Source: an uncultured Chloroflexia bacterium | GTDB lineage: Bacteria; Chloroflexota; Limnocylindria; Limnocylindrales; CSP1-4 | Reading direction: 5' to 3' | Length of the DNA stretch: 64,000 nt | Assembly (NCBI GenBank): GCA_963816905.1 | Contig: CAWFMQ010000009.1 | Coordinates: 20,142-84,141, forward strand | In this document: in pieces, positions 6,781 to 43,694 of the stretch | How positions within the stretch are numbered: position 1 is the stretch's first letter | Layout: the number at the start of each line of letters is the position of its first letter | Program-made: the position numbers and the translations under genes | Notes under the pieces: generated by a model | Seen by the model: only the letters and a program-made list of their open reading frames with translations | What the model was told of the DNA's origin: nothing | Databases searched by the model: none

Positions 6781-7311
6781 ATGCCGACACTCAACGAGCG
6801 GATCGATACTTCTCTCCCGATCGACGACGCCTTCGACTTCGTCGCCGACTTCGCCAACTCCTCGCAGTGGGATCCGGGCGTCGCGACCTCCGAGCGCGTC
6901 GACGGCGATCTCGTCGGTGTCGGTTCCCGGTACCGGCTCGGCGTCCGGATGCGAGGGCGAGTCGCGCCGATGGAGTACCGGACCACCGTCTTCGACCCGC
7001 CCAGCCGCGTGGTGCTCGAGGGCCGGGGCTCCGGCGTCGCGGCAGTGGACGACATCACCTTCGCGTCGACCGAGTCCGGCACCCGGATCGGCTACGTCGC
7101 CCACATCCGCCTCACCGGCGCGATGCGCCTCGTCGCGCCGTTCGCGGGCGGCACCTTCGCCAGGATCGCCCGGGACGCACGCGACGGGATGCAGCGGACG
7201 CTCGACGAGCGAGCCGCTGCCCGGCGGGCCGTGTCGGCCAGCCAGCCCGCCCCGAACGATGAGCCCGCGCCTGCCGTCGAGCCCGTGCTCGCCGAAGGCG
7301 GCGCCAGGTGA
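6781..7311 (+). CDS. SRPBCC/polyketide cyclase family protein
   Basis: DAFDFVADFANSSQWDPGV..GVGSRYRL. Overlaps the next start (GTGA). Confidence 0.85.
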   Translation: MPTLNERIDTSLPIDDAFDFVADFANSSQWDPGVATSERVDGDLVGVGSRYRLGVRMRGRVAPMEYRTTVFDPPSRVVLEGRGSGVAAVDDITFASTESGTRIGYVAHIRLTGAMRLVAPFAGGTFARIARDARDGMQRTLDERAAARRAVSASQPAPNDEPAPAVEPVLAEGGAR

Positions 7312-8601
7312 ACATCGCCGTTATCGGGGCCGGTGTCAGCGGCCTGACCGCCGCATATGCGATGCGCCGGGATCACCGGGTCACGCTGTTCGAGGGGGAC
7401 GCGGCCGCCGGCGGTCACGTCAAGACCGTGGTCGTGGACACGGAGCAGGGGCCGGTCACGGTCGATACCGGTTTCATCGTCTACAACGAGCACACCTATC
7501 CGCGTCTTGTGGCCCTGCTTGCGGAACTCGGCGTCGAGACGCAGCCGAGCGACATGTCGCTCGGCTCGGCCTGCGAGCCTGCGGGATCGCGTTCAGCTCG
7601 CGGGGCACGGGGGGCTACTTCGCGGACCCGTCGGCGCTCGCGCGGCCCGTGCACTGGCGCATGTTCGCCGACATCGCCCGGTTCTACCGCGATGCACGGA
7701 GGGAGCTCGACGCCCCCGAGCCGACACGGGCGACGCTCGGCGAGTGGCTCGACGAACGGGGATACGGGCGCGGGTTTCGGGACCACTTCCTGGTGCCCGT
7801 CGACCTCCGCCGTCTGGTCGACGGCCGCCGATCGGATCCTCGATTTCCCGGTCGACTACCTCCTCCACTTCCTCGACAACCACGGGCTCATCGGCCTCGC
7901 GACGCTCGCTCCAGTGGCGCATCATCCCGGCGGCTCGCACCAGTACGTGAGCGAATCGTAGACGCACTCGGGCCGGGCTCCGTCCGCGCCGGCAGCGCCG
8001 TGTCGGCCGTCCTTCGCGACCCGTTCGGCGTCACCGTCCGCACGGAGGACGGTGACTCGGATCGGTTCGATGCGGTCGTCATGGCAACGCACGCGGACGA
8101 CGCGCTCCGCCTGCTGGGCGATGCGGACGGTCGCGAGCGCGGCGTCCTCGGACGCGTTCGAGTACTCGACGAACCAGGTCGTCCTCCACACGGACGCAGC
8201 GCATCCTGCCGGCCCGCCGTCGCGCCTGGGGCTCGTGGAACATCGCACACGCAGGATTGCAGGCACGCCCGGCGAGGCGCTGACAATGACGTACCACATG
8301 AACCGGCTGCAGTCCCTTCCCGGGCCCGTCCAGTACTGCGTCTCGGTGAACCCAGGGGAACGGATCCGCCCGGAGAAGGTGATCGTGGAGCGCGCCATGA
8401 GCCATCCGATGTACACGTTCAGGACGCTCGACGCGCAGGCGGGGCTGCGGGAGCTCCAGGGCCACCGGCAGACCTGGTACGCCGGAGCCCATCTCGGATA
8501 CGGCTTCCACGAGGACGGCTGTCGTTCGGGCTTCGAGGTCGCCGAGATGCTGGTCGGCCGTGCGAGGCGGAGCGGGACGGCGACGCGAGCGGGCCGCGTG
8601 A
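7308..8601 (+). CDS. FAD-dependent oxidoreductase (amine-oxidase-like, UfaD-type desaturase), frameshifted
   Basis: [66 protein letters not shown] across several frames. Confidence 0.85.
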
Positions 8602-9369
8602 ACTCGCACCTCCTGGAGGGGAAGGTCCGGCATCGCCGCGCCCGGCCGTGCGTCTACGAGCTCGAGCACGACGTGTACTACTTCGCGCTCGATCTCTCCG
8701 AACTCGACGAGGTGGTCGGGCGGCTGCGCCTGCTCGGTCGCAACCGCCGGAGCGTCGTGACGTTCCGCGACGGCGACCACCTGCCCGCAGCCGGCGACCG
8801 ACCTCGATGCCGACGTCCGGACCCACCTTCAGACCGAGGGCGTGGAGCGCCGAGGGCTGGCAGGTCACGCTGATCGACGAACCTGCGGGTCCTCGGCTAT
8901 GTCTTCAATCCGGCGAGCTTCTACCTCTGCCGGGATCGAGGATGGCGTGCTTCGCGTCGTCGTCGTGGAGGTCCACAACACGTTCGGCGAGCGGCACCTC
9001 TACACGCTGCGGCCGGGGGCGGCGGGCGATACGCTTCATGCGCGTCCATGGAGAAGGACTTCTACGTCTCGCCGTTCATCGACATGGAGGGTCGCTACAC
9101 GGTCACCGTCCGCGAAGACGGCGAGCGGCCTGCGGATCGGGATCAACCAGCAGGGGGCCGATGGGCCGCTGCTCGCCACGAGCCTGGTCCTGCGGCGGAG
9201 GCCCCTGGGCGATCGAACCCTGGCGCGGATGCTGCTGCGGCACCCGCTGATCAGCCACAAGACGATCGGGATGATCCACTGGCATGCGCTGCGGCTGTGG
9301 CTGCGCGGCGCGCGGTTCCATCCGCACGGCCAGGCAGGGCGAGCGGCCGCGGGGCAGGCAGCGAGATGA
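8598..9369 (+). CDS. DUF1365 family protein, frameshifted
   Basis: [56 protein letters not shown]. Confidence 0.85.
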
Positions 9370-10649
9370 GCCAAAAGTCGCTCGCGGTCCTGGGACGTGG
9401 CGCGCCGGAATCGGCGCTCGAACAGGTCGCCCGACGGGGTGGCCGTCCTTCGTCGCCGCTCGAGCAGGTTGCCCGCAGGATCACGCTGGCGGCGGCCCGG
9501 CAGATCCGGGTCGGGCGTGTGACGGTTGAGCTGCCGGACGGGTCCCGCCATACGTTTGGCGACGCCGCGTCGCGGCCGGCGGCCGAGATCCGCATCCACG
9601 ACGCGACGGGCGTGCTGCGCATGTTCCTCGGCGGCGCGACGGGTTTCGGCGAGGCCTACGTGGACGGGCACTGGTCGAGCCCGGACCTGCCCGTGCTCCT
9701 GCGCCTGGCAGCCCTGAACCGCGAGTCGCTCGCGCCGTCCGCCGGTTGGTGGCGGATCCCGTTGCAGATCCCCCGGACGATCGCCCATCGGGCGAGACGC
9801 AACACGCTGCGCGGGAGTCGCCGGAACATCGCCGCCCACTACGACCTGGGCAACGACTTCTACCGCCTCTTCCTGGACGAGACGCTGACCTACTCGAGCG
9901 CGGTCTTCGAGTCGGCGAACCAGCCGCTTGCCGACGCCCAGCGGAACAAGTACCGGATCATCGCCGAGCGTGCCGGCCTGGCGCGCGGCATGCACGTCCT
10001 CGAGATCGGCTCGGGCTGGGGCGGCTTCGCGCTGTACGCGGCCGGTGAGCTCGGCTGTCGAGTCACGACGATCACGATCTCGGAAGCGCAGCACCGGCTC
10101 GCAACCGAGCGGGTCCGAGCGGCCGGACTGGAGGATCTCGCGAGGGTCGAACTGCGGGACTACCGGCAGGTCGAGGGCACCTACGACGCGATCGTCTCGA
10201 TCGAGATGCTCGAGGCGGTCGGGGCGGAGTACCTCTCGACCTTCTTCGATGCGTGCGATCGGGCGTTGGTCGACGGCGGGAGGTTGAGCCTCCAGTCGAT
10301 CACCTTCCCGGACAGCGCGTACGAGGAGCAACTCCGCTCCGCCAACTGGATCCAGGCCTACATCTTCCCCGGTGGCGTGCTGCCGTCGCTGGCGGCGATC
10401 GAGCGAGCGACGCGGCGGACGAACCTGCTGATGACACGCGTCGATGACATCGCGTCGCACTACGTGCGGACGCTGGCGACGTGGCGGACGCGCTTCCTGG
10501 AGCAGCTTGACGCGGTGCGGGCGATGGGCTTCGACGATCGGTTCATCCGGACCTGGGAGTACTACCTCGCGCTGTCGGAGGCGGGATTCGCCACCGGGTT
10601 GGTGCAGGATCAGCAGATCGTCTTCGAGAAGCGGCGCGGGATCGGCTGA
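9366..10649 (+). CDS. cfa: Cyclopropane-fatty-acyl-phospholipid synthase family SAM methyltransferase
   Basis: NIAAHYDLGNDFY, LTYSSAVF, VLEIGSGWGG, SIEMLEAVG, YIFPGG, RTWEYYLA. Confidence 0.92.
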   Translation: MSQKSLAVLGRGAPESALEQVARRGGRPSSPLEQVARRITLAAARQIRVGRVTVELPDGSRHTFGDAASRPAAEIRIHDATGVLRMFLGGATGFGEAYVDGHWSSPDLPVLLRLAALNRESLAPSAGWWRIPLQIPRTIAHRARRNTLRGSRRNIAAHYDLGNDFYRLFLDETLTYSSAVFESANQPLADAQRNKYRIIAERAGLARGMHVLEIGSGWGGFALYAAGELGCRVTTITISEAQHRLATERVRAAGLEDLARVELRDYRQVEGTYDAIVSIEMLEAVGAEYLSTFFDACDRALVDGGRLSLQSITFPDSAYEEQLRSANWIQAYIFPGGVLPSLAAIERATRRTNLLMTRVDDIASHYVRTLATWRTRFLEQLDAVRAMGFDDRFIRTWEYYLALSEAGFATGLVQDQQIVFEKRRGIG

Positions 10650-19471: not shown

Positions 19472-20800
19472 CTATTCCACGGGTTCCTGCGGCCGCCAGC
19501 CGGGCGGCCGCTCGGCGGCAGGCTGCGCCGCAGATGGCCCACCGGCAGGAGGCCTCCCGGCGACAACCGGGCGCCCGGATGGTCCCCTCATGTCCGCCTC
19601 TCCCTCGTCGACCTTCGGCGCCCCGGGGATCAACCCCGCCGGCACCTCACCGTCCGGGAGCTCGTCCTCGCCAAGCGCGGAAAGCCAGGCGCGCAGACTG
19701 CCCCGCCAGAGTGCTCGCGCGTGGAACGAGCCACGCTCCGTGATCCCGTCCATGCCCCCGGACATCACCAGTGTCTCGAGCAGCGGCGCCAGCTGGGAAC
19801 CGTAGACGTGCATGCAGGGTTCCGGGCGGACTCCCGGCCACGAGTAGCAGGACACCACCGTCCGGCGACAATCGGTCGGAATTCCCGGCGGAAGGGCATC
19901 CCAGGCCGGGTCGTCGGGCGCGAACTCCCACTGGTTCAGGTCGCCCTGCGGGATCCCCTCGATTCCCCGCACGACCGTGGGCTGCGCGTCGAGGAGGTAC
20001 GGGTCGACGACCAGATCGCACAGCACCGCGTGCTTCGGCATCAGGCCGATCCACTCGTTGCGTACGACCGGGATCGACGCATCGTGGCGCTGCGTCGCGT
20101 CGACGAGGACGTCCGTGATCGCGAGCCGCTCCCGGAGGTAGGTGGTGTCCTGGGTCAGGTTCCGTCCCGTGGTGACGACCTCCACGCCCGGCAGCCCGAA
20201 TCGCATGAATGCCTCGTTCCTGGCGTCGTCGCCGTACTTCGTGGCAAATTCGACGGCGTGCTTCCCGATCGTCCCGGCACCCATGATCGTGACCCGGACT
20301 GGCGGCCGGCCCGATTCGACAAGGGCGGGCCAGGTTCGTTCGAGGGCCGCGAATGCGGCTCCGACGCCATTCCAGGCCACGCTTCGGAGGTTTTCGACGA
20401 GCCGACGCCCATCGTCGTTCGCGATCAGGTCCATGCAGATCGCGTCGATGCCGAGGTCGCGCAGGAGCGCGACACGCGCCGGCCGGGTCGCGAAATGGAG
20501 CATCGAGACGAGCACGGTGCCCCGCCGAAGTTTCTCGTACCGGCCCTCCGGCGCCCGAAGCACCACGACCACGTCCTGGTGGTAGGCGTCGTCCTCGTCG
20601 CTGATGTGGACGTCGGGCGACAGCGCCGTGTAGTCGAGGTCGGAATACCCCATTCCCGACCCGATGCCCTGCTCGACATGGACCTCGGCGCCGAGCGCGG
20701 TCAGCAGCCCGATGAGCGGCGGCAGGAAGTCGCGTCGCTCGTTGCCCTCCTTGTGCATCCGCGGGAAGCCGATCGTCAGGGGGCGCGCGGTGGCTGCCAT
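19472..20800 (-). CDS. Alanine dehydrogenase/PNT-superfamily NAD(P)-dependent enzyme (AlaDH/saccharopine dehydrogenase/CEO-synthase-like)
   Basis: IGFPRMHKEGNERR, VEQGIGSGMGYSD.DY, GAGTIG, DLVVD. GGAGGAG RBS before ATG 20800. Confidence 0.75.
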   Translation of the reverse strand: MAATARPLTIGFPRMHKEGNERRDFLPPLIGLLTALGAEVHVEQGIGSGMGYSDLDYTALSPDVHISDEDDAYHQDVVVVLRAPEGRYEKLRRGTVLVSMLHFATRPARVALLRDLGIDAICMDLIANDDGRRLVENLRSVAWNGVGAAFAALERTWPALVESGRPPVRVTIMGAGTIGKHAVEFATKYGDDARNEAFMRFGLPGVEVVTTGRNLTQDTTYLRERLAITDVLVDATQRHDASIPVVRNEWIGLMPKHAVLCDLVVDPYLLDAQPTVVRGIEGIPQGDLNQWEFAPDDPAWDALPPGIPTDCRRTVVSCYSWPGVRPEPCMHVYGSQLAPLLETLVMSGGMDGITERGSFHARALWRGSLRAWLSALGEDELPDGEVPAGLIPGAPKVDEGEADMRGPSGRPVVAGRPPAGGPSAAQPAAERPPGWRPQEPVE

Positions 20801-21044
20801 GTACTCTCCTCCCCCACCGAATCGCGCCCGGACCGGACCGGCGCGCCGGCGTGGCACGATTCACCGGATGGTGCCCGACCCGTCAGGGGCTTTCATGTGC
20901 CATGCGTCACGAGCGCCCGGGTCGCTGCGCCCGATCGCCGGACCGTTCTGCGCCGGTCGCCGCGGCCGACTGGATCTCGGCCGCGCCGGGAGCGACAATG
21001 TGGGAGCAGCGCCAGCGCCCCAGCTCGCTCAAAGGAGGTCGACT

Positions 21045-21287
21045 GTGATCGCCATGGGCACGCAGAACCGTTCCCGGGCCACGGCCGATCTCGGCCGGGG
21101 TGAAGCGACCTGCGCCACCGCCGTCGCGGATGCCATTGGGACCCGCACCGGGGGGCGGTTGGACCCTAGTCCTCCCGGGGAACCTGCCCGCATGCTCCGG
21201 TGGGAGATGGCTTCCCTCAGTCGCCGCGAGGTGTCGAACGTGCACTCCAGTTCGCCAGTGAATGCTCACCGCGAGGTGGCGCGATGA
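21045..21287 (+). CDS. Hypothetical 80-aa ORF coupled to glpA-like gene
   Basis: AAAGGAGG RBS before GTG 21045. Stop overlaps ATG 21284. No recognisable motif. Confidence 0.35.
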   Translation: MIAMGTQNRSRATADLGRGEATCATAVADAIGTRTGGRLDPSPPGEPARMLRWEMASLSRREVSNVHSSSPVNAHREVAR

Positions 21288-22487
21288 CGGCCTCGGGCAA
21301 CGGGCGATCCGGACGGGGCGGCGCCCCGCGAACGGCCATCGTCATCGGCTCAGGCTCGACCGGTGCGGCAACCGCGCATGACCTGGCGCTGCGCGGCTTT
21401 GCCGTGACGGTTGTCGAGCGCGGCGAGGTCGCCTGCTCGACCACCGGACGCAACCACGGTCTGCTCCATTCCGGTGGCCGGTACGCCGTCAAGGACGCCG
21501 AGGCCGGCGAGGAATGCATCGTCGAGCGGGATATCCTGGCGCGCATCGTGCCGGAGGTCCTCGAGTTGAACGGCGGCCTGTTCGTCGCCGTGGACGAGTC
21601 GGATCTCGCGTACAAGGACACGTTCCTCCAGGCCTGCGCCCAGTGCCACATCCCTACCCGGGACCTGACGGTCGCCGAGGCGCGAGAGCTGGAGCCGGCA
21701 CTCAGCCCGAAGACGCTCGCCGCGGTCGAGGTTCCCGACGGCAGCTTCGACCCACTCCACCTCGTCCTCGCGTTCCTCGCCACCGCGCGCGCGAACGGGG
21801 CGCGGATCCTCCCGTACACGGAGGTGGACGAACTGGTGGTGCGCGGCAGGACGGTGGAGGGCGCCGTCGTGCGGGACCGGCGCAACGGCAACCGGATGAC
21901 GATCGAGGCGGACATCGTGGTCAACGCCACCGGTCCGTGGGCCGGGCGCATCGCGGCGATGGCAGGGGTCGACGTTCCGATCGTGCCGACGGCCGGCGTC
22001 ATGGTCGCGATCGCCGGTCGAATCTCGGACCGCGTCGTGAACCGCCTGAACAAGTCGAGCGACGGCGACATCATCGTCCCGCAGCGGCGCACCGTGGTGA
22101 TCGGCACGTCCTCGTGGCCCGTGGACGACCCGGACCACATCGCGATCCCCGCCGATCACGTCGCGCTCATGCTCGAACGCGGCGCCGAGCTGATGCCGTC
22201 GGTTGCCAACTTCCCCGTCCGGGGGATCAGCGCGGCGGCCCGGCCGCTCATCGGCTCCAGCGCGGATCCGAGCCTGGGGCGCGAGCTGTCCCGCACGTTC
22301 GAGTGCTTCGACCACGCGAGAGGACGGGGTCGAGGGGTTCGTGACGATCAGCGGCGGCAAGACGACGACGATGCGCGGAATGGCGGAGAAGGTGAGCGAC
22401 GTGGTGTGCGAGAAGCTCGGGGTGTCGGCGGCCTGCCGGACCAGGGAGGTCCCGCTCCGTTCGTACCGGGACTACTACGGTGGCTGA
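21284..22487 (+). CDS. glpA: Glycerol-3-phosphate dehydrogenase GlpA-like flavoprotein (short form), frameshift near 22320
   Basis: [57 protein letters not shown]. Confidence 0.8.
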
Positions 22488-23256
22488 CGGCCGTGTCGTA
22501 CTCCGCGTCTGGCGCACCCCTCGACCGGGTCGCGATCGCGCAGGCCTCCAGGACATCGAGGTCCGGGTCGATTCCGAGCGGGACAACGTCCTCGACCTGA
22601 TCGAACGCGCCTGGGCCGAGGGAGACCGGACGCTCGTCTTCCGGCACGCCTGCCACCACGCCTCCTGCGGCACGTGCGCCGTGCGGGTCGACGGTCGCGA
22701 GCACCTGCCGTGCATCACGGCGGTGCGCGACGTCTGGGACGGACACTCGCCGATGACGATCGAGCCGCTGCGCAACGTCGCGCTGGTGGCCGACCTGGCC
22801 ATCGATCCGACGGCGGTCCTCGCAACGATCGGAGCGATCCGCCTTCCCTACATCCGCACCGTTGAGACGATCGTCCGGGCGGCCTCGGGTGTGGCCGACG
22901 ACGCGGACGTCGGCACGGCCGAGCGCTTCGAGGACTGCCTGGAATGCCTCGCCTGCGTCTCGGCCTGCCCGGTCGCCGCGGGTGATCCCGAGTACCTCGG
23001 GCCGGCGGTGCTCGCGGCCGCCGACCGGGTCGCCGAGGAGCCGCGCGGCCAGGATCCGCGACGCGTCCTCGACATGGTGAATACGGCGCACGGTGTGTGG
23101 CAGTGCCGCTCCGTCTGGGCCTGCAGTGCCGTGTGCCCGTCCAACGTGGACCCGGCGGCGCGCATCATGGACCTGCGTCGCCGCCTCATCGGCGGCGAGG
23201 CCAGGGGTTCGCAGGCAGCCGCTCCACTGGTCCAGGGTGAGGCAGGACGGCGATGA
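22480..23256 (+). CDS. sdhB: Succinate dehydrogenase/fumarate reductase-type iron-sulfur subunit
   Basis: [42 protein letters not shown]. Confidence 0.85.
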
Positions 23257-23681
23257 GTGAACGCAGAGTGGCGCCCGTCCAGGTTCCCACGCCCGGGCCG
23301 GCCATTCGCCCGGGGGGCATCCGGCGCCTGACATTCTGGTTGGAACCGCGGTGGTCCGACCCCGGCTGGTGGGCCTTCGCGCTGAACCGGTTCACGGGGA
23401 TCGTCCTCGTCGTCTATCTCATCATCCACCTGTTCCTGCTGAGCAATCTTGCCAACGGGCCGGCCGGCTGGGACGCGCTGCTCGGAACGCTCGGATCGAA
23501 ACCGTTCCTCGTGGGTGACACGCTGCTGATCGCGGCCGTCGCGTACCACGGGCTGAACGGCATCCGCGTGTCGCTCCTGACGTTCGGGATCGGCACACAG
23601 CGCAGCGGTGCGATGTTCGGCGTAGTGTTCGTCGCGGCTGCGTTGATCACCGCGGCAGCCGGACTGGCGATCCTCAAGTGA
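23253..23681 (+). CDS. sdhC: SdhC-like cytochrome b membrane anchor
   Basis: LNRFTG..YLIIH, YHGLNGIR, 3 TM. Confidence 0.85.
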   Translation: MSERRVAPVQVPTPGPAIRPGGIRRLTFWLEPRWSDPGWWAFALNRFTGIVLVVYLIIHLFLLSNLANGPAGWDALLGTLGSKPFLVGDTLLIAAVAYHGLNGIRVSLLTFGIGTQRSGAMFGVVFVAAALITAAAGLAILK

Positions 23682-24130
23682 CCGACCAGACTCGCTCCGA
23701 ACGCCGGTTCCTCGGACGCCCGGAAGGCGCCCGACCCGGGTACGTGCCGCCTGCCGACGAACGTCGCCGGCCGGTCGTCCCCGAGCGCAGCCGAGGCAGC
23801 TCCCTGTGGCTCACCCAGGCGATCACCGGCGGGCTGCTGGTCGTCTTCCTGGGCGTGCACCTGATCGCGCAGCACATCCTGGCGCCGGGTGGCCTTCGGG
23901 ACTTCGCAGACGTCCAGAGCTTTCTGAAGCAGCCGCTCGCGCTGGTCAGCGAGCTCGGCCTCGTGGGTGCGGTGCTCATCCATGTCGTGCTGGGGGTTCG
24001 CGCCTTCCTCGTGGAGGCGGTCAAGAACCAGAAGATGCAGGCGTGGCTGACGTGGATCGTGGCCGGGCTTGCCGTGGTGGCATTCGTCTACGCGATCTGG
24101 CTCACGGCGACGATCATCAACTACAGCTGA
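23678..24130 (+). CDS. sdhD: SdhD-like membrane anchor
   Basis: WLTQAITG..L.VH, H..LGVRAFLVE, 3 TM. Confidence 0.8.
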   Translation: MTDQTRSERRFLGRPEGARPGYVPPADERRRPVVPERSRGSSLWLTQAITGGLLVVFLGVHLIAQHILAPGGLRDFADVQSFLKQPLALVSELGLVGAVLIHVVLGVRAFLVEAVKNQKMQAWLTWIVAGLAVVAFVYAIWLTATIINYS

Positions 24131-24347
24131 TCCGCAGCTGATCCGCGCGCCGCACTCGAGGGGCCGCGCGCCGCATCCGGGGGGCCGCGCGCCGCATCGG
24201 GCGGGCTTTGGTGGCGGCCGCGAGCGACGATCGCCCGGACGGCGGACGACACGGCCCCGGGGTCTGTACGCACCTCCATGCCGGGCATACAATCCGCGCC
24301 CGCGGGCCCGTCAGGCTCGCGGAAGGCGGGGCAGGCGGGTAGTCATC

Positions 24348-24536
24348 ATGTCGCGGCGTGCTGTCGAAGATGCACTGAGGGCCTGGCGGGAGGCCGAGCG
24401 GGCGCTCGAGGAGGTCCAGGCGTCCGATTCCCCAGCCGCGACCGTGACCGCTGCCGAGCAGCGGGTGGCGGATGCTCGCGAGCGCTACCAGCAGGCGATC
24501 GCCGACGCAGAGGAGCGGCTGCGCCCCGACCAGTAG
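24348..24536 (+). CDS. Small helical-hairpin (coiled-coil) protein, 62 aa
   Basis: MSRRAVEDALRAWREAERALEE..ARERYQQAIADAEERLRPDQ. Confidence 0.55.
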   Translation: MSRRAVEDALRAWREAERALEEVQASDSPAATVTAAEQRVADARERYQQAIADAEERLRPDQ

Positions 24537-24645
24537 CACCTCGCGGCCGGGGCGCGCCTGTCGCCTGCATCCCGTCGTCAGAGTCGCGGCCGCCGGCGGC
24601 TCCAGGCCGACGACGAACGCGTGCAGGCCGGTCCCGCGCCGGGGG

Positions 24646-25602: not shown

Positions 25603-26595
25603 ATGAGCAGCCCGCCCGTCTCGGAGCCACAGGTAGGCGCGCACAGGGCCATGGACCGACTGCGAGAGGATCTCCGGACCCTCGGTGCCCGCCTGACATC
25701 AATCGGCGACGGCCGCCCCCGGCCCGGTCACGGCACGGACGCCGTGAGATCGGGCTGGAGACTCGGGCTGTGGCACGGCTCGATCCTCTCGGGTCTGCTT
25801 GTCCTGGCCTACACCTTCCTGGTCGTCGCGCCTCGCGAGGGCATCTTCGGGATGGACGCCTGGGCCTACTGGAGCGTGCACCGACCGGATGTCTACGCCG
25901 TCCCGTTGTCCCATCTGGGCGCCTTCCCCTACTCGCCACCGGCGGCAATGGTGGCGGACCTGTTCGACATCGTGCCGTGGAACACCTTCATCTGCCTGTG
26001 GACCGCGCTGCTCGTGGCGACAGTCATTTTCATCGGCGGCCGCGGCGCCTGGGTGCTCGCCGCCTTCGCCTTCCCGACCCGTCGCCTTCGAGCTCCTCTA
26101 CGGCAACATCCACATCGTGCTGGCCGTCGCCGTGGTGCTGGGGTTCCGCCATCCCTGGACGTGGTCCTTCGTTCTGCTGACCAAGTTCACCTGCGGCATC
26201 GGGCTCCTCTGGTTCCTCGTCCGCCGCGAGTGGCGAAACCTGGCGCTGGCCCTCGTGCCGACTGCCGTGATCTGTGCCGTGACGGTTCTGCTGGCTCCCT
26301 CGCTGTGGGCCGATTGGCTGGCGTTCCTCGGGGCCTCGCCCAGGTCTTCGACGAGGCTGGTTCTCTGCCGATCCCGCTGTGGCCGCGCCTCATCGCGGCC
26401 GCTGCGCTGGTCGTCTGGGGTGCCAGGACCGATCGCCGCTGGACGGTGGTCGCGGCCGCGACCGTGGCACTGCCCGTCCTGTGGATCGCCGGCCTGGCGA
26501 TGCTCATCGGCATCATTCCCGAGGTGCGCGGCCGCTCACTGGCACGGACGGCGCGCCCATCGACGGCGGTAGCGGCGGCGCGGGCCGGAGCGTAG
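25603..26595 (+). CDS. GT87 (GT-C) membrane glycosyltransferase-like, frameshifted
   Basis: MDAWAYW, FPYSPPAA, ELLYGNIH, LLTKF, multi-TM. Confidence 0.75.
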   Translation: MSSPPVSEPQVGAHRAMDRLREDLRTLGARLTSIGDGRPRPGHGTDAVRSGWRLGLWHGSILSGLLVLAYTFLVVAPREGIFGMDAWAYWSVHRPDVYAVPLSHLGAFPYSPPAAMVADLFDIVPWNTFICLWTALLVATVIFIGGRGAWVLAAFAFPTRRLRAPLRQHPHRAGRRRGAGVPPSLDVVLRSADQVHLRHRAPLVPRPPRVAKPGAGPRADCRDLCRDGSAGSLAVGRLAGVPRGLAQVFDEAGSLPIPLWPRLIAAAALVVWGARTDRRWTVVAAATVALPVLWIAGLAMLIGIIPEVRGRSLARTARPSTAVAAARAGA

Positions 26596-33352: not shown

Positions 33353-34370
33353 TCAGGGAACGGCGACTGTGGCGCGTACCACGCAATGGTCGCTGCCGCG
33401 CGGCGTGCAGTCCGGGGAGATTGCGATCGGCGCGACGCCGTTTGCCGCGAACACCATGTCGATGCGGAGCAAGCCGAACGGCAGCCACTTCACCGGGTCC
33501 GGGCGCCACGTCGCGCCGGGACCGAAGCCGACCGCGTGCTGGAGGTCGATCATCCCGCGCGAGATCTCGGCGTAGGCGGGTTCGCGGTCGGTCGTGTTGA
33601 AATCCCCCACCAGCACGAGCGGGTCGCCGGCGGCCAGTAGCGGATCGACCACGGCACGCATCGCGGCGATCTCCGCGTCACGTTTGGAGGGATCGAACCC
33701 GGTCGGGATCGGCAACGGACCCAGGACCGGGATGACGCCTGCAACGGGGTGCGCGACCACGACCTGGAACGAGCGACCGCCTCCGGCATCCAGCCGCGCC
33801 CTGATCAGCGGCGGATCGTTGGCGATCGTGGTGACGTCGAGGATGGGGAAGCTGCTGAGGAGCCCGATACCCAGCGAGCCGTCACGGGGCAGGATCTGCT
33901 GGTACGGGAAGCGTGCCCGGATGGCGGCGTCGGCGGCGATCGCGCTCGCGTGGTGCGGCGTCAATTCCTTCGAGCCCGACGATTCCCGCGGGGGCTGCCC
34001 GAAGCGTGGCCAGCACGGTGTCGGTCTCGGGATCGCCCGCGTCGAGGTTCCAGCCCGTGATGCCGATCGCATGCCCGCCGACTGAGGCCGCGGCACCGCG
34101 CGGAAGCCACCCGGGGGCGAACCCTGCGGCCGCGACGAGCAGGCATGCGACGAGCGCGACCAGCAGCGCGCGCCTGGTGCCCCTCGCGGCGCCGCGCGGC
34201 GGCAGCAGCGCCACCGGAATGAACAGGAGCAGCGGCAGGAACAGGAGCGGTGCAAGGACCTCGCCGAGGGCGAGCAGACCGTCACGCTGTGGCGCGAGTA
34301 CACCCACCGCCATCAGCGCGAGGAGACCAACGGCGTAGGAGATACCGATGAAGGTGAGCAAACGGCGCAC
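33353..34370 (-). CDS. Membrane-anchored endonuclease/exonuclease/phosphatase family protein, frameshifted
   Basis: N-terminal TMs, GWNL, LVGDFN, RIDMVF, GSDH. Confidence 0.85.
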
Positions 34371-34480: not shown

Positions 34481-35510
34481 ATGGCCAGCCCTCCCAAAAC
34501 CCGCCGTGACGAGCCCTTCATCCCGGCACCGGGTACACGTCTCGAGGGCATGGCGCTCGGCATCGACGTGGGCGGGACCGGCGTCAAGGCGGCGCTGGTC
34601 GACCTTGCGACCGCCGAACTGGTCAGCGACAGGGTCCGCGAGAAGACGCCCCAACCACCAAAACCGGGAGCGGTCGCCGAAACGATCCGCTCGGTCGTGG
34701 GTCGCGTCCTGGCCGATCGTCAAGTCCCGGACGACCTGGCCGTCGGCTGCGGGCTGCCGGGCGTCGTAAAGGACGGCCGCCTGACGACGGCAGCCAACAT
34801 CGGCCGCGAGTGGATCGGATGGCCCGCCGAGGAACGCATCGGTGCGGCGATCGGCCGCCGGGTCATGATCATCAACGACGCGGATGCCGCCGGGCTCGCC
34901 GAGGTGGCCTACGGCGCCGGCGAGGGCGTCGAGGGAACCGTGCTGCTGCTCACCATCGGGACCGGCATCGGCAGCGGCCTGTTCATCGACGGGGCGCTCG
35001 TGCCGAACACCGAGCTGGGGCACATCGAGGTCCACGGCAAGGACGCCGAGACGCGGCTGAGCGGCGCGGCACGCGAGCGGCGCAAGCTCGGCTGGAGGCC
35101 GTGGGCAAACGAGTTCAATTTCTACCTTTCGCACCTCGAGTGGTACCTCCAGCCTGACCTGATCATCCTCGGCGGCGGCGTCTCCAAGGAGATGTCGTCG
35201 TTCGGCGAAGTACCTCAGGGCGCAGGCGCCGATCGTGACCGCGACGTACCTGAACACGTCCGGCATCATCGGTGCTGCCTACGCGGCGGCTGCGGCAGAG
35301 CGGATGCAGCGAGCCCGCGCCGCGACCGCGACGAGGCGCCGCCGCGTCGCCAGGGGCGATCCCGGCACCGTGGGCGGGGCGCCACGCGTGGTCGGTGCAT
35401 CGACGGATGATGGCGTGACCCACCCGGCCGAGGCGACCACGGCGAACGATCCTCCGGGAGGCGCCGCGCCCGACTCCGGAGACGGGATCACCGTTCGATG
35501 CTGCGCCTGA
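34481..35510 (+). CDS. ppgK: Polyphosphate glucokinase (ROK), frameshift near 35210
   Basis: GIDVGGTGVK, INDADAAGLAE, TIGTGIGS, PNTELGH, GGGVSK, NTSGIIGAA. Confidence 0.85.
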
Positions 35511-42049: not shown

Positions 42050-43694
42050 TTGACGGCAGTGCCGGACCGAAACGTGGGCCGAAGCCAGAGCCGCTGGATC
42101 ATGACGGCGGTCATCCTCGGCTCGGGGATCGTGTTCCTCGACGGCACGATCGTGAACGTGGCGCTGCCCCGGATGGGGCGCGAGTTGCCGGCGACGCTCG
42201 TGGGTGTGCTCGAGGGCCAGGCCTACATCACGAGCGGCTACCTCGCCGTCCTGGCAGCGCTCCTGATCATCTCCGGCGCGCTCGCCGATCGCTACGGCCG
42301 GCGCCGGATCTTTGCAATCGGGCTCGCCAGCTTCGGGATCGTCTCGGCACTCTGCGGTCTCGCACCGACCATGGAGACCGAGATCTTCTTCCGCCTGCTC
42401 CAGGGCGCCGCCGGTGCGCTCCTCGTCCCGGGATCGCTGTCCCTGATCACGGCCAATTTCGAAGGGGCAGCGCGCGGCCGAGCGTTCGGTGTCTGGGCGG
42501 CGTCCACGTCCGCGCTGACGGTGCTCGGCCCGCTCGTCGGGGGCGCGCTCGTCGACCTGCTCTCCTGGCGCGTCGCGTTCCTGCTGAACGTGCCGCTCGT
42601 GCTCGTGGCGCTGTACGCGACGCTGCGCCACGTGCCGGAGAGCCGCGACGAGGAGGCGGCGGCGCGGCTCGACTGGCTCGGCTCGATCGTGATCGCGGTC
42701 GCGGTCGGAGGCATCGCCTTCGGGTTGATCCGTGGCCAGGAACAGCAGTGGAACGACCCGCTGGCCTTCGCCGCGCTGGGCATCGGCCTCGTCGCTGCCG
42801 TGATCTTCCCGATCCTCATGGTCAAGAGCCCGAACCCGCTGATCCCGCCCAACCTGTTCCGCAGCCGCAACTTCACGGTGATCAACATCTCGACGTTCCT
42901 GATCTACGGCGCCCTGTACGTCACGCAGAGCTTCCAGAGCCTCTTCCTGCAGGGCGTGCTCGGGTACACGGCGATTGCGGCATCGGCCGTCGGATTGCCC
43001 ACGGGAATCATGCTCAGCCTGGGATCCACGCGCGTCGGCACCATCGCCGGCCGTCTCGGGCCGCGGCGATTTCTCATCATCGGCCCCGTCTTCATGGCGC
43101 TCGGGCTGCTCTGGTATGTCCACGTCCCCGCGACGAGCTACCCATGGGTGATCCAGCCCGGCGTTGCCTCGAGCTGGGTTCCGCCGGTGTCCACGCTCGT
43201 GGACATCCTTCCCGGGATCGCTGCTGTTCGGCATCGGGATCACCCTGGTGGTCGCCCCGCTGACGACGGCCCTCATGAACTCCGTGCCGATGCGGCACGC
43301 GGGCCTGGGCTCGGCCATCAACAACTCGGTGTCCCGGGTCGGGCAGCCGCTGCTGATGGCCGTGCTGTTCATCGCCATTTCCGCAAGCTTCTACAGCGCG
43401 ATCGACGCCGTTCCCGGGCTGGACGCCTCCTCTGCCGACGTGCGGCAGCAGGTCCAGCCGCTCAACCCGCCACCGGCCGCGCTTCCGCCCCGCCAGCGCG
43501 CCGCGATCGACAACGCCTCCACGGACGCGTTCCACCTGGCGATGCTGGTCAACGCGGGCCTGTTGCTGGCCGGCGCCGCCGTCAACGGGTTCGGACTGCG
43601 CCGTGCGAGGGCGGACGTGCCGGCGCCGGACACCGGCCGGCTGGGGCAGGAGCCGGTGGCGCAGGAGTCACACGTCGGGGGTACGCCCGGCTGA
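42050..43694 (+). CDS. MFS drug:H+ antiporter (DHA2-like), frameshift near 43220
   Basis: LDGTIVNVALP, ADRYGRRR, RLLQGAAGALLVPGSL. The C-terminus continues in another frame. Confidence 0.9.

Follow-up and report, generated by a model that had tools for sequence, protein, structure and literature searches.

What does a bacterium make from a gene resembling glpA, which encodes the flavoprotein of a glycerol-3-phosphate (G3P) dehydrogenase, when that gene runs directly into counterparts of the complex II genes sdhB, sdhC and sdhD? This question is raised by four consecutive plus-strand genes (21284-24130) in a stretch of 64,000 nucleotides (hereafter, the window) from contig CAWFMQ010000009.1 of an uncultured Chloroflexia bacterium (assembly GCA_963816905.1). 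An earlier note on this DNA had described four overlapping genes without sdhA, glpB or glpC, and had proposed that they specify a non-canonical, quinone-linked G3P dehydrogenase built on a complex II scaffold. We recover the layout as described: on one strand, overlaps of 4-8 nucleotides join the genes at 22480, 23253 and 23678, and no sdhA, glpB or glpC was found inside the cluster or beside it. We also side with the proposal, given the conserved gene order, the exchange with glpABC in the same operon slot and the natural gene fusions described below: the four genes most likely encode a membrane-bound respiratory sn-glycerol-3-phosphate:menaquinone oxidoreductase.

The enzyme that we envisage would operate as follows. 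A flavoprotein of the GlpA clade would oxidize G3P to dihydroxyacetone phosphate (DHAP) on non-covalently bound flavin adenine dinucleotide (FAD). This catalytic head would have shed the BFD [2Fe-2S] domain at its C-terminus and would no longer have GlpB and GlpC as partners; the FAD would hand its electrons to a docked SdhB-type subunit, where they would enter at the [2Fe-2S] cluster and travel to the [4Fe-4S] and then the [3Fe-4S] cluster. A two-subunit anchor carrying two haems b (SdhC plus SdhD, type-A-like) would then reduce menaquinone. Such an enzyme would act after GlpK, which is encoded in an operon on another contig, and would replace the missing GlpD or GlpABC. Gene content, cofactor ligands, synteny, phylogeny and fusions were computed directly; from these we infer complex formation, the substrate, the quinone, the presence of two haems and which way the electrons run.

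A survey of operon conservation, which the earlier note had put forward as a check, covered 80 species-level genome loci of relatives. In 77 of the 80, a short glpA is followed directly by sdhB, across junctions that range from an overlap of a few bases to a gap of ~300 nucleotides, and in 69 the series continues through sdhC and sdhD. The glycerol kinase gene glpK lies no more than 3.5 kb upstream in 54 loci, and at least one glycerol gene is present within the fetched locus in 62; the typical layout is glpF-dhaK-dhaL-glpK-glpA-sdhB-sdhC-sdhD-(an unknown 210-residue gene)-dhaM-HPr-ptsI. Carriers within Chloroflexota belong to Limnocylindria, Anaerolineae, Thermoflexales, Ktedonobacteria, Caldilineales and Ardenticatenaceae; beyond this phylum we found one Dormibacterota metagenome-assembled genome (MAG), soil Actinomycetota and one Planctomycetaceae MAG. 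One carrier among the surveyed loci is cultured: Thermanaerothrix solaris 4228-RoL. The window itself, which comes from a soil genome, is assigned by its relatives to Chloroflexota, near 'Candidatus Limnocylindrales'. These loci also address the case in which the cluster is an artefact, namely an ordinary second complex II whose sdhA, once situated between glpA and sdhB, was lost by misassembly or deletion. The earlier note had named this case as the one that would overturn its proposal. We found nothing in its favour: no relative has an sdhA at that position, glpA and sdhB are directly joined in independent assemblies of 77 species, and a 98%-identical metagenome contig (L003) displays the same junction. 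The chance that an sdhA has gone missing here is, in our estimation, close to nil.

Another key observation is that the flavoprotein and the iron-sulfur subunit also exist as a single polypeptide. A search in which GlpA and SdhB were joined end to end retrieved at least 27 protein clusters of GlpA::SdhB fusions (P0121-P0147; 664-752 residues), which cover 92-97% of both parts and have the Pfam content DAO, Fer2_3 and Fer4_8. They come from Cellulomonas, Actinotalea, Isoptericola, Pengzhenrongella and one Bacillota MAG. In Cellulomonas sp. SG140 (L104, 7001-9885) the fused gene has overlapping sdhC and sdhD genes after it. A different pair is joined in an Anaerolineaceae MAG (L071, 8159-9295), in which a 378-residue SdhB::SdhC fusion combines Fer2_3, Fer4_8 and Sdh_cyt. 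The fusions offer the best in-silico evidence for the predicted contact between GlpA and SdhB, and they bear on the idea that adjacency occurs without assembly: GlpA would then work by itself, as a monotopic or soluble protein like GlpD, and SdhBCD would be the partners of a succinate dehydrogenase or fumarate reductase flavoprotein whose gene lies elsewhere. This idea draws on three relatives that have a short glpA with no sdhBCD beside it, but it sits poorly with the covalent fusions in at least 27 protein clusters, with the attachment of sdhB to glpA in 77 of 80 loci and with the stop/start overlaps at all three junctions of our cluster. Furthermore, the only SdhA of this genome already resides in a complete sdhCDAB operon, and the one other match to that family is NadB. 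We consider it exceedingly unlikely that the neighbours do not assemble. We rejected one further candidate fusion, the 944-residue 'GlpA' of L010, which is an over-extended open reading frame.

The relationship of the short GlpA to canonical enzymes emerges from a second sample of 401 evenly drawn Chloroflexota species, 90 of which have a GlpA homologue. A short-type GlpA (at least 52% identity) occurs in ~21 species and a long-type GlpA (40-46% identity; reading frames of 520-610 residues) in ~65-70. Among the 20 short-type genomes besides this one, sdhB adjoins glpA in 18, and a second, canonical SdhB (28-34% identity) is present in 19. In other Chloroflexota the long glpA is found within the same operon skeleton, followed by glpB and glpC, and all three products score over their NCBIfam cut-offs. 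The slot after glpK is thus filled by either of two sets: GlpA(BFD)-GlpB-GlpC, or short GlpA-SdhB-SdhC-SdhD. In a maximum-likelihood tree, all 87 SdhBCD-linked short GlpAs, that of the window among them, form one clade relative to 12 GlpABC-type GlpAs (SH-aLRT 100; branch length 0.51), and the sequences from Actinomycetota and Planctomycetota nest within those of Chloroflexota. This topology fits an origin of the short GlpA in a single event, with some horizontal transfer afterwards.

Short glpA is also encountered in other arrangements. Two class-mates, G160 (L096) and G293 (L095), each contain two systems at a distance of ~11 kb from one another: the first is a glpF-dhaKL-glpK-dhaM-glpA(long) unit and the second, set apart from it, a short glpA-sdhBCD cluster, so both types of G3P dehydrogenase coexist in some Limnocylindria-like genomes. 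In the three orphan loci (L035, L037 and L040, at ~7000-9400; Thermoflexales/Chloroflexota MAGs), the short glpA is followed by a convergent gene for a LacI-family regulator. In four Solirubrobacterales/Actinomycetota MAGs (L073, L075, L076 and L081, at ~8100-9800), the short GlpA precedes a single protein of 557-636 residues that contains Fer2_3, Fer4_8 and a C-terminal CCG domain (TfrB/GlpC-like); sdhC and sdhD are absent from these four loci. This partner appears to join an SdhB-type wire to a GlpC-like, membrane-associated exit that has no haem, which would constitute a third wiring of the short GlpA. We also noted a conserved gene for a protein of ~180-210 residues that often lies 3' of sdhD (L005, 10622-11254, and ~25 other loci). 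It is found in the glycerol operons of Anaerolineae and Thermoflexales and is absent from the genome of the window. Its product has no Pfam match, and its sole match in NCBIfam, a weak one, is with a corrinoid-protein-associated methyltransferase; a role as accessory or assembly factor is possible.

We now turn to the parts from which the enzyme would be built. The SdhB-like protein matches Pfam Fer2_3 (2e-19) and Fer4_8, and it scores 156 bits against the SdhB/FrdB family model TIGR00384 (cut-off 88). Its predicted ligands are C58, C63, C66 and C78 for [2Fe-2S], C153, C156, C159 and C163 for [4Fe-4S], and C209, C215 and C219 for [3Fe-4S]; all 11 cysteines are 96-100% conserved among 81 cluster homologues. 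The protein is only 30.5% identical to the canonical SdhB of the same genome, and its best relatives in the PDB are E. coli FrdB and the SdhB of Mycobacterium smegmatis Sdh2. Both anchor candidates match Pfam Sdh_cyt (5.7e-13 for the SdhC-like protein and 4.9e-11 for the SdhD-like one), and the former barely exceeds the cut-off of the cytochrome b556 model TIGR02970 (54.8 bits versus 52.3). Residues H59 and H99 of SdhC, conserved in 100% and 97% of 71 homologues, align respectively with His C47 and His C87 of 6LUM chain C, which ligate haem bD (C47) and haem bP (C87) in M. smegmatis Sdh2 (PMC7447783). In SdhD, H61, H66 and H102 are 100% conserved among 69 homologues, and the positions of H61 and H102 correspond in the alignment to the two haem-ligand histidines of 6LUM chain C. 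The pattern points to a type-A-like anchor pair with two haems b. Type-A two-haem anchors are usual in menaquinone-using organisms. The view that a complex II-type iron-sulfur protein is followed by two haem-b anchors, also expressed in the earlier note, is therefore upheld by the TIGR00384 score, by the two Sdh_cyt matches and by the conserved histidines.

A side observation concerns the third ligand of the [2Fe-2S] cluster: it is Cys in GlpA-linked SdhB (C-x4-C-G-x-C) and Asp in canonical Chloroflexota SdhB (C-x4-C-G-S-D). The Asp form, as in E. coli SdhB, was seen in L105-L121 and in the canonical gene of our genome (G000:C4:79031-79729). This residue is a simple marker that separates the two SdhB paralogues, and it is clearer than a motif signature for the cluster SdhB, which we abandoned as it fits only part of the family. 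We also discarded the selenocysteine-like '1 TGA inside' flags on the canonical SdhB of relatives: these alignments ran beyond the stop codon.

As for the flavoprotein, the GlpA-like protein matches Pfam DAO (1.9e-53) and scores 432 bits against the GlpA equivalog TIGR03377 of NCBIfam; this is under the cut-off of 552.8 because the profile is matched only over positions 2-378 of 530. The BFD-like [2Fe-2S] tail is absent: 3 residues extend beyond the GlpA core, versus 122-180 in long GlpAs. The hallmarks of canonical GlpABC, i.e., a full-length GlpA over the equivalog cut-off together with a four-Cys BFD domain, are thus lacking in the window protein. Its score against the GlpD model NF008899 is 88 bits (cut-off 360), and there is no Pfam match to DAO_C. 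The earlier note had described a flavoprotein of ~400 residues without a BFD-like domain; the TIGR03377 match agrees with the missing domain, but the protein is not encoded in one open frame here (Table 1). An intact homologue of 400 residues (P0001), 97% identical to the window GlpA, yielded an AlphaFold2 model with pLDDT 85 and pTM 0.86, for which the best folds in the PDB are GlpO (2rgo) and GlpD (2qcu, 3da1 and 9a53), with TMq 0.73-0.82.

We judged the substrate site by column conservation relative to bona fide GlpAs, not by named residues. Of 80 columns that are invariant in bona fide GlpAs, 57 are unchanged in no fewer than 90% of short GlpAs, and these include conserved Arg, His, Lys and Tyr positions. 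The window GlpA retains 88 of 90 family-wide columns (those at least 90% conserved over 98 other GlpAs), and the two that deviate, G52S and A75G, are both conservative changes. There are 64 synonymous and 12 non-synonymous codon differences between glpA and its counterpart in the 98%-identical contig L003, and 37 and 9, respectively, between sdhB and that of the same contig. By this measure both genes appear to be under purifying selection.

Table 1. Coordinates of the cluster genes and of the insertion in glpA (window numbering)
Feature	Position	Strand	Details
glpA-like (short glpA)	21284..22487	+	two frames in assembly: 21284..~22318 and 22320..22487
one-base insertion (extra G) in glpA	22316..22322	+	window GCGAGAGGAC versus L003 GCGA-AGGAC
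sdhB-like	22480..23256	+	258 aa; GTG start, 8-nt overlap with glpA TGA
sdhC-like membrane anchor	23253..23681	+	142 aa; ATGA overlap with sdhB
sdhD-like membrane anchor	23678..24130	+	150 aa; GTGA overlap with sdhC

Is the operon alive in this organism? The window glpA is 1204 nucleotides long and its frame shifts near 22319; with the extra G at that position removed, the site would read GCGAAGGAC. In L003, a metagenome contig with 98% DNA identity, an intact 400-residue GlpA is followed by the same sdhB. If the extra G were a real mutation, the flavoprotein gene would be a pseudogene and the operon dead. The deposited frame is truly broken, the insertion falls outside any homopolymer run, and the cluster lies apart from the glycerol operon, all of which would suit that explanation. 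Set against it is the general state of the assembly, which comprises 4.0 Mb in 22 contigs and is rated only 58.9% complete. Other genes are split likewise: ptsI (contig C18), a ROK gene, an Exo_endo_phos gene and a membrane-protein gene (25603-26595); the ROK and Exo_endo_phos Pfam matches begin or end at the frame breaks. A codon-bias scan, which flags a coding signal that jumps frame without a stop, gave ~968 candidate frame breaks among ~4950 coding segments genome-wide and 11 in the window; these counts, from a home-made heuristic run with no control genome, are to be read as orders of magnitude. Examples of such sites in the window are 25603-26595, 34508-35492, 42071-43667 and, on the minus strand, 33389-34358. 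Related long-read MAGs (L011, L015 and L086) are broken elsewhere in the same operon. Moreover, conservation at the protein level persists past the break (7 synonymous and 2 non-synonymous codon differences from L003), and the 88 intact columns likewise argue against decay. A pseudogene therefore strikes us as unlikely. The extra G is most likely an assembly error, from which it follows that the operon is probably intact in the organism. Given how widespread the frame breaks are, claims of a 'pseudogene' or 'truncated protein' that are based on this genome need caution.

The remainder of the genome provides the metabolic context. The earlier note had asked whether a canonical sdh operon exists elsewhere, and one does: sdhC-sdhD-sdhA-sdhB occupies ~76.4-79.7 kb of contig C4. 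Its SdhA (865 bits against the sdhA_forward equivalog) is the only SdhA of this genome, and our cluster encodes no SdhA/FrdA flavoprotein (FAD_binding_2 plus Succ_DH_flav_C); the other Succ_DH_flav_C match is the L-aspartate oxidase NadB, the gene for which adjoins nadC. Contig C18 groups the glycerol genes glpF, dhaK, dhaL, glpK and dhaM with HPr and ptsI. Nowhere in the assembly was a GlpD, a GlpB or a BFD-type GlpA found: its CCG proteins are only 28% identical, and two weak DAO matches resemble an enzyme of the L-2-hydroxyglutarate oxidase type and a generic DAO enzyme. Because those three proteins are missing, the window cluster is the only candidate for the oxidation of G3P after GlpK, bearing in mind that the assembly may be incomplete.

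This context is also where a different substrate has to be considered. The complex could be real and its head could, in this lineage, oxidize another 2-hydroxy or phospho-alcohol compound; an alternative 2-hydroxy substrate had been entertained in the earlier note. Enzymes of the DAO fold do have varied specificities, and within the window there is no glycerol gene within ~20 kb of the cluster. Yet only two of the 90 conserved columns differ, both conservatively, which speaks against the note's alternative. In addition, the closest class-level relatives (L010-L012, L022, G160 and G293) keep the cluster 1.5-6 kb from glpF, dhaK, dhaL and dhaM, and this genome, which has glpF and glpK, contains no G3P-dehydrogenase-like gene other than ours. 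We think it very unlikely that the head has changed its substrate, and continue to favour G3P.

Several considerations nonetheless weigh against a G3P:menaquinone oxidoreductase made of all four gene products. Three have been met above: glpA is frameshifted in the deposited assembly, no glycerol gene adjoins the cluster in this genome, and three relatives carry an orphan short glpA without sdhBCD. The contact between GlpA and SdhB is itself inferred; the AlphaFold2 model of one fusion (P0127) was poor (pLDDT 57.6, pTM 0.51; shallow alignment) and its interface uninformative. In the searchable literature, no GlpA-SdhBCD enzyme has been tested biochemically or structurally. Finally, since the assembly is 58.9% complete, the lack of GlpD and GlpABC is no proof of their absence.

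A design of this type has been predicted previously. In a survey of archaeal G3P dehydrogenases, a 'GlpA-SdhBCD (T. pendens)' arrangement was drawn from synteny (Schmerling et al., Commun Biol 2025; PMC11962113, Fig. 9b): in Thermofilum pendens and Thermofilales, glpA is followed by presumed equivalents of succinate dehydrogenase b, c and d, which were proposed to provide anchoring and electron transfer. As in the window, a GlpA-clade flavoprotein without GlpB and GlpC precedes SdhBCD genes, and both cases are predictions. The archaeal case, which we compare by its published description only, is synteny-based and covers a few species. The bacterial type, on the other hand, is common and mostly embedded in a glpF-dhaKL-glpK operon; it belongs to Chloroflexota, and nested among these are Actinomycetota, Dormibacterota and one Planctomycetota MAG. 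The window itself departs from this glycerol linkage, glpF-dhaKL-glpK being on C18, whereas glpK is upstream in 54 of the 80 relatives. We found no further paper on the GlpA-SdhBCD design in the searchable full-text literature, and none on bacteria. The design is thus already known as a prediction, of which the window would be a bacterial member. The same survey states that bacterial canonical glpA 'consistently' co-occurs with glpB and glpC (PMC11962113); that constant company is contradicted by the wide bacterial distribution of short glpA.

Comparison with characterized enzymes helps to delimit what is new in this architecture. GlpABC (E. coli and Haloferax; TIGR03377, TIGR03378 and TIGR03379) has a homologous head, at 40-46% identity to the long GlpAs of Chloroflexota, with the same conserved active-site columns and the same operon position after glpK. 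Unlike GlpABC, the window head has neither the BFD [2Fe-2S] tail of ~150 residues nor GlpB and GlpC alongside; electrons leave GlpABC via GlpB and the CCG-domain protein GlpC, whereas in the window the predicted exit is a three-cluster SdhB-type subunit plus a haem-b anchor. GlpD (2QCU and 3DA1) shares the fold (TMq 0.73-0.82) and presumably the reaction, from G3P to quinone, but it works without iron-sulfur or haem partners and possesses the C-terminal DAO_C domain that the window protein lacks. The resemblance on the membrane side is to M. smegmatis Sdh2 (6LUM; type A, di-haem), the best PDB match for both anchors and the second-best for SdhB: the SdhB cluster ligands are alike, as are the two small anchors with bis-His ligation for haems bP and bD. 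In contrast to Sdh2, the window has no SdhA and so no fumarate/succinate site with covalent FAD; its head is an unrelated DAO fold, and no SdhF was seen. Measured against complex II in general, the window has, by sequence, the three-cluster ligands of SdhB and the four-His anchor of type A, and it has no SdhA.

Complex II is usually taught as a fixed unit of SdhA, SdhB and anchor. An iron-sulfur wire and haem anchor of complex II origin that serve an unrelated flavoprotein would represent a modular rewiring of respiratory chains. In annotation pipelines, genes of this kind are entered as 'FAD-dependent oxidoreductase' and as 'succinate dehydrogenase iron-sulfur/cytochrome b subunit'; as a consequence, reconstructions of metabolism in Chloroflexota, Dormibacterota and soil Actinomycetota would overlook the G3P step in the respiration of glycerol and count too many succinate dehydrogenases. 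The window alone adds little to this picture, as one more and slightly damaged example. Cultured carriers do exist, namely Thermanaerothrix solaris and, for the fused form, Cellulomonas spp. such as strains SG140 and P24, and the cultured Actinomycetota that have the fusion are tractable organisms.

The energetics would also differ from those of complex II. The redox potentials are ~-190 mV for G3P/DHAP, ~+30 mV for succinate/fumarate and ~-74 mV for menaquinone. G3P/DHAP lies well below menaquinone, so the reduction of menaquinone by G3P would need no help from the membrane potential, unlike the oxidation of succinate. We offer a broader hypothesis tentatively, and rate it as possible rather than probable: the SdhB plus di-haem SdhC/SdhD part of a type-A complex II might be a transferable 'wire and anchor' that a DAO-fold GlpA head acquired on one occasion, after which the head gave up its BFD domain, GlpB and GlpC. 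That capture might have given rise to a large class of respiratory G3P dehydrogenases, mostly in bacteria, in which a di-haem anchor that takes electrons across the membrane to a distal menaquinone site would link the oxidation of G3P to the membrane potential, unlike GlpD or GlpABC. The head might also have been re-plugged onto other exit modules, namely the SdhB::CCG, GlpA::SdhB and SdhB::SdhC forms.

Some local features of the window complete the description. Upstream (5') of the cluster are a divergent AlaDH/PNT-like gene, a Gfo/Idh/MocA oxidoreductase gene and deoC. Scans of 20700-24600 for sigma-70 promoters, intrinsic terminators and Rfam families found none, which is weak evidence in a window of ~70% GC. 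Directly 3' of sdhD, the segment 24124-24206 holds 2.1 copies of an 11-bp unit (CAGCTGATCCG) that run across the stop codon, followed by three copies of a 21-bp unit (CCGCGCGCCGCATCCGGGGGG); these repeats could be assembly stutter.

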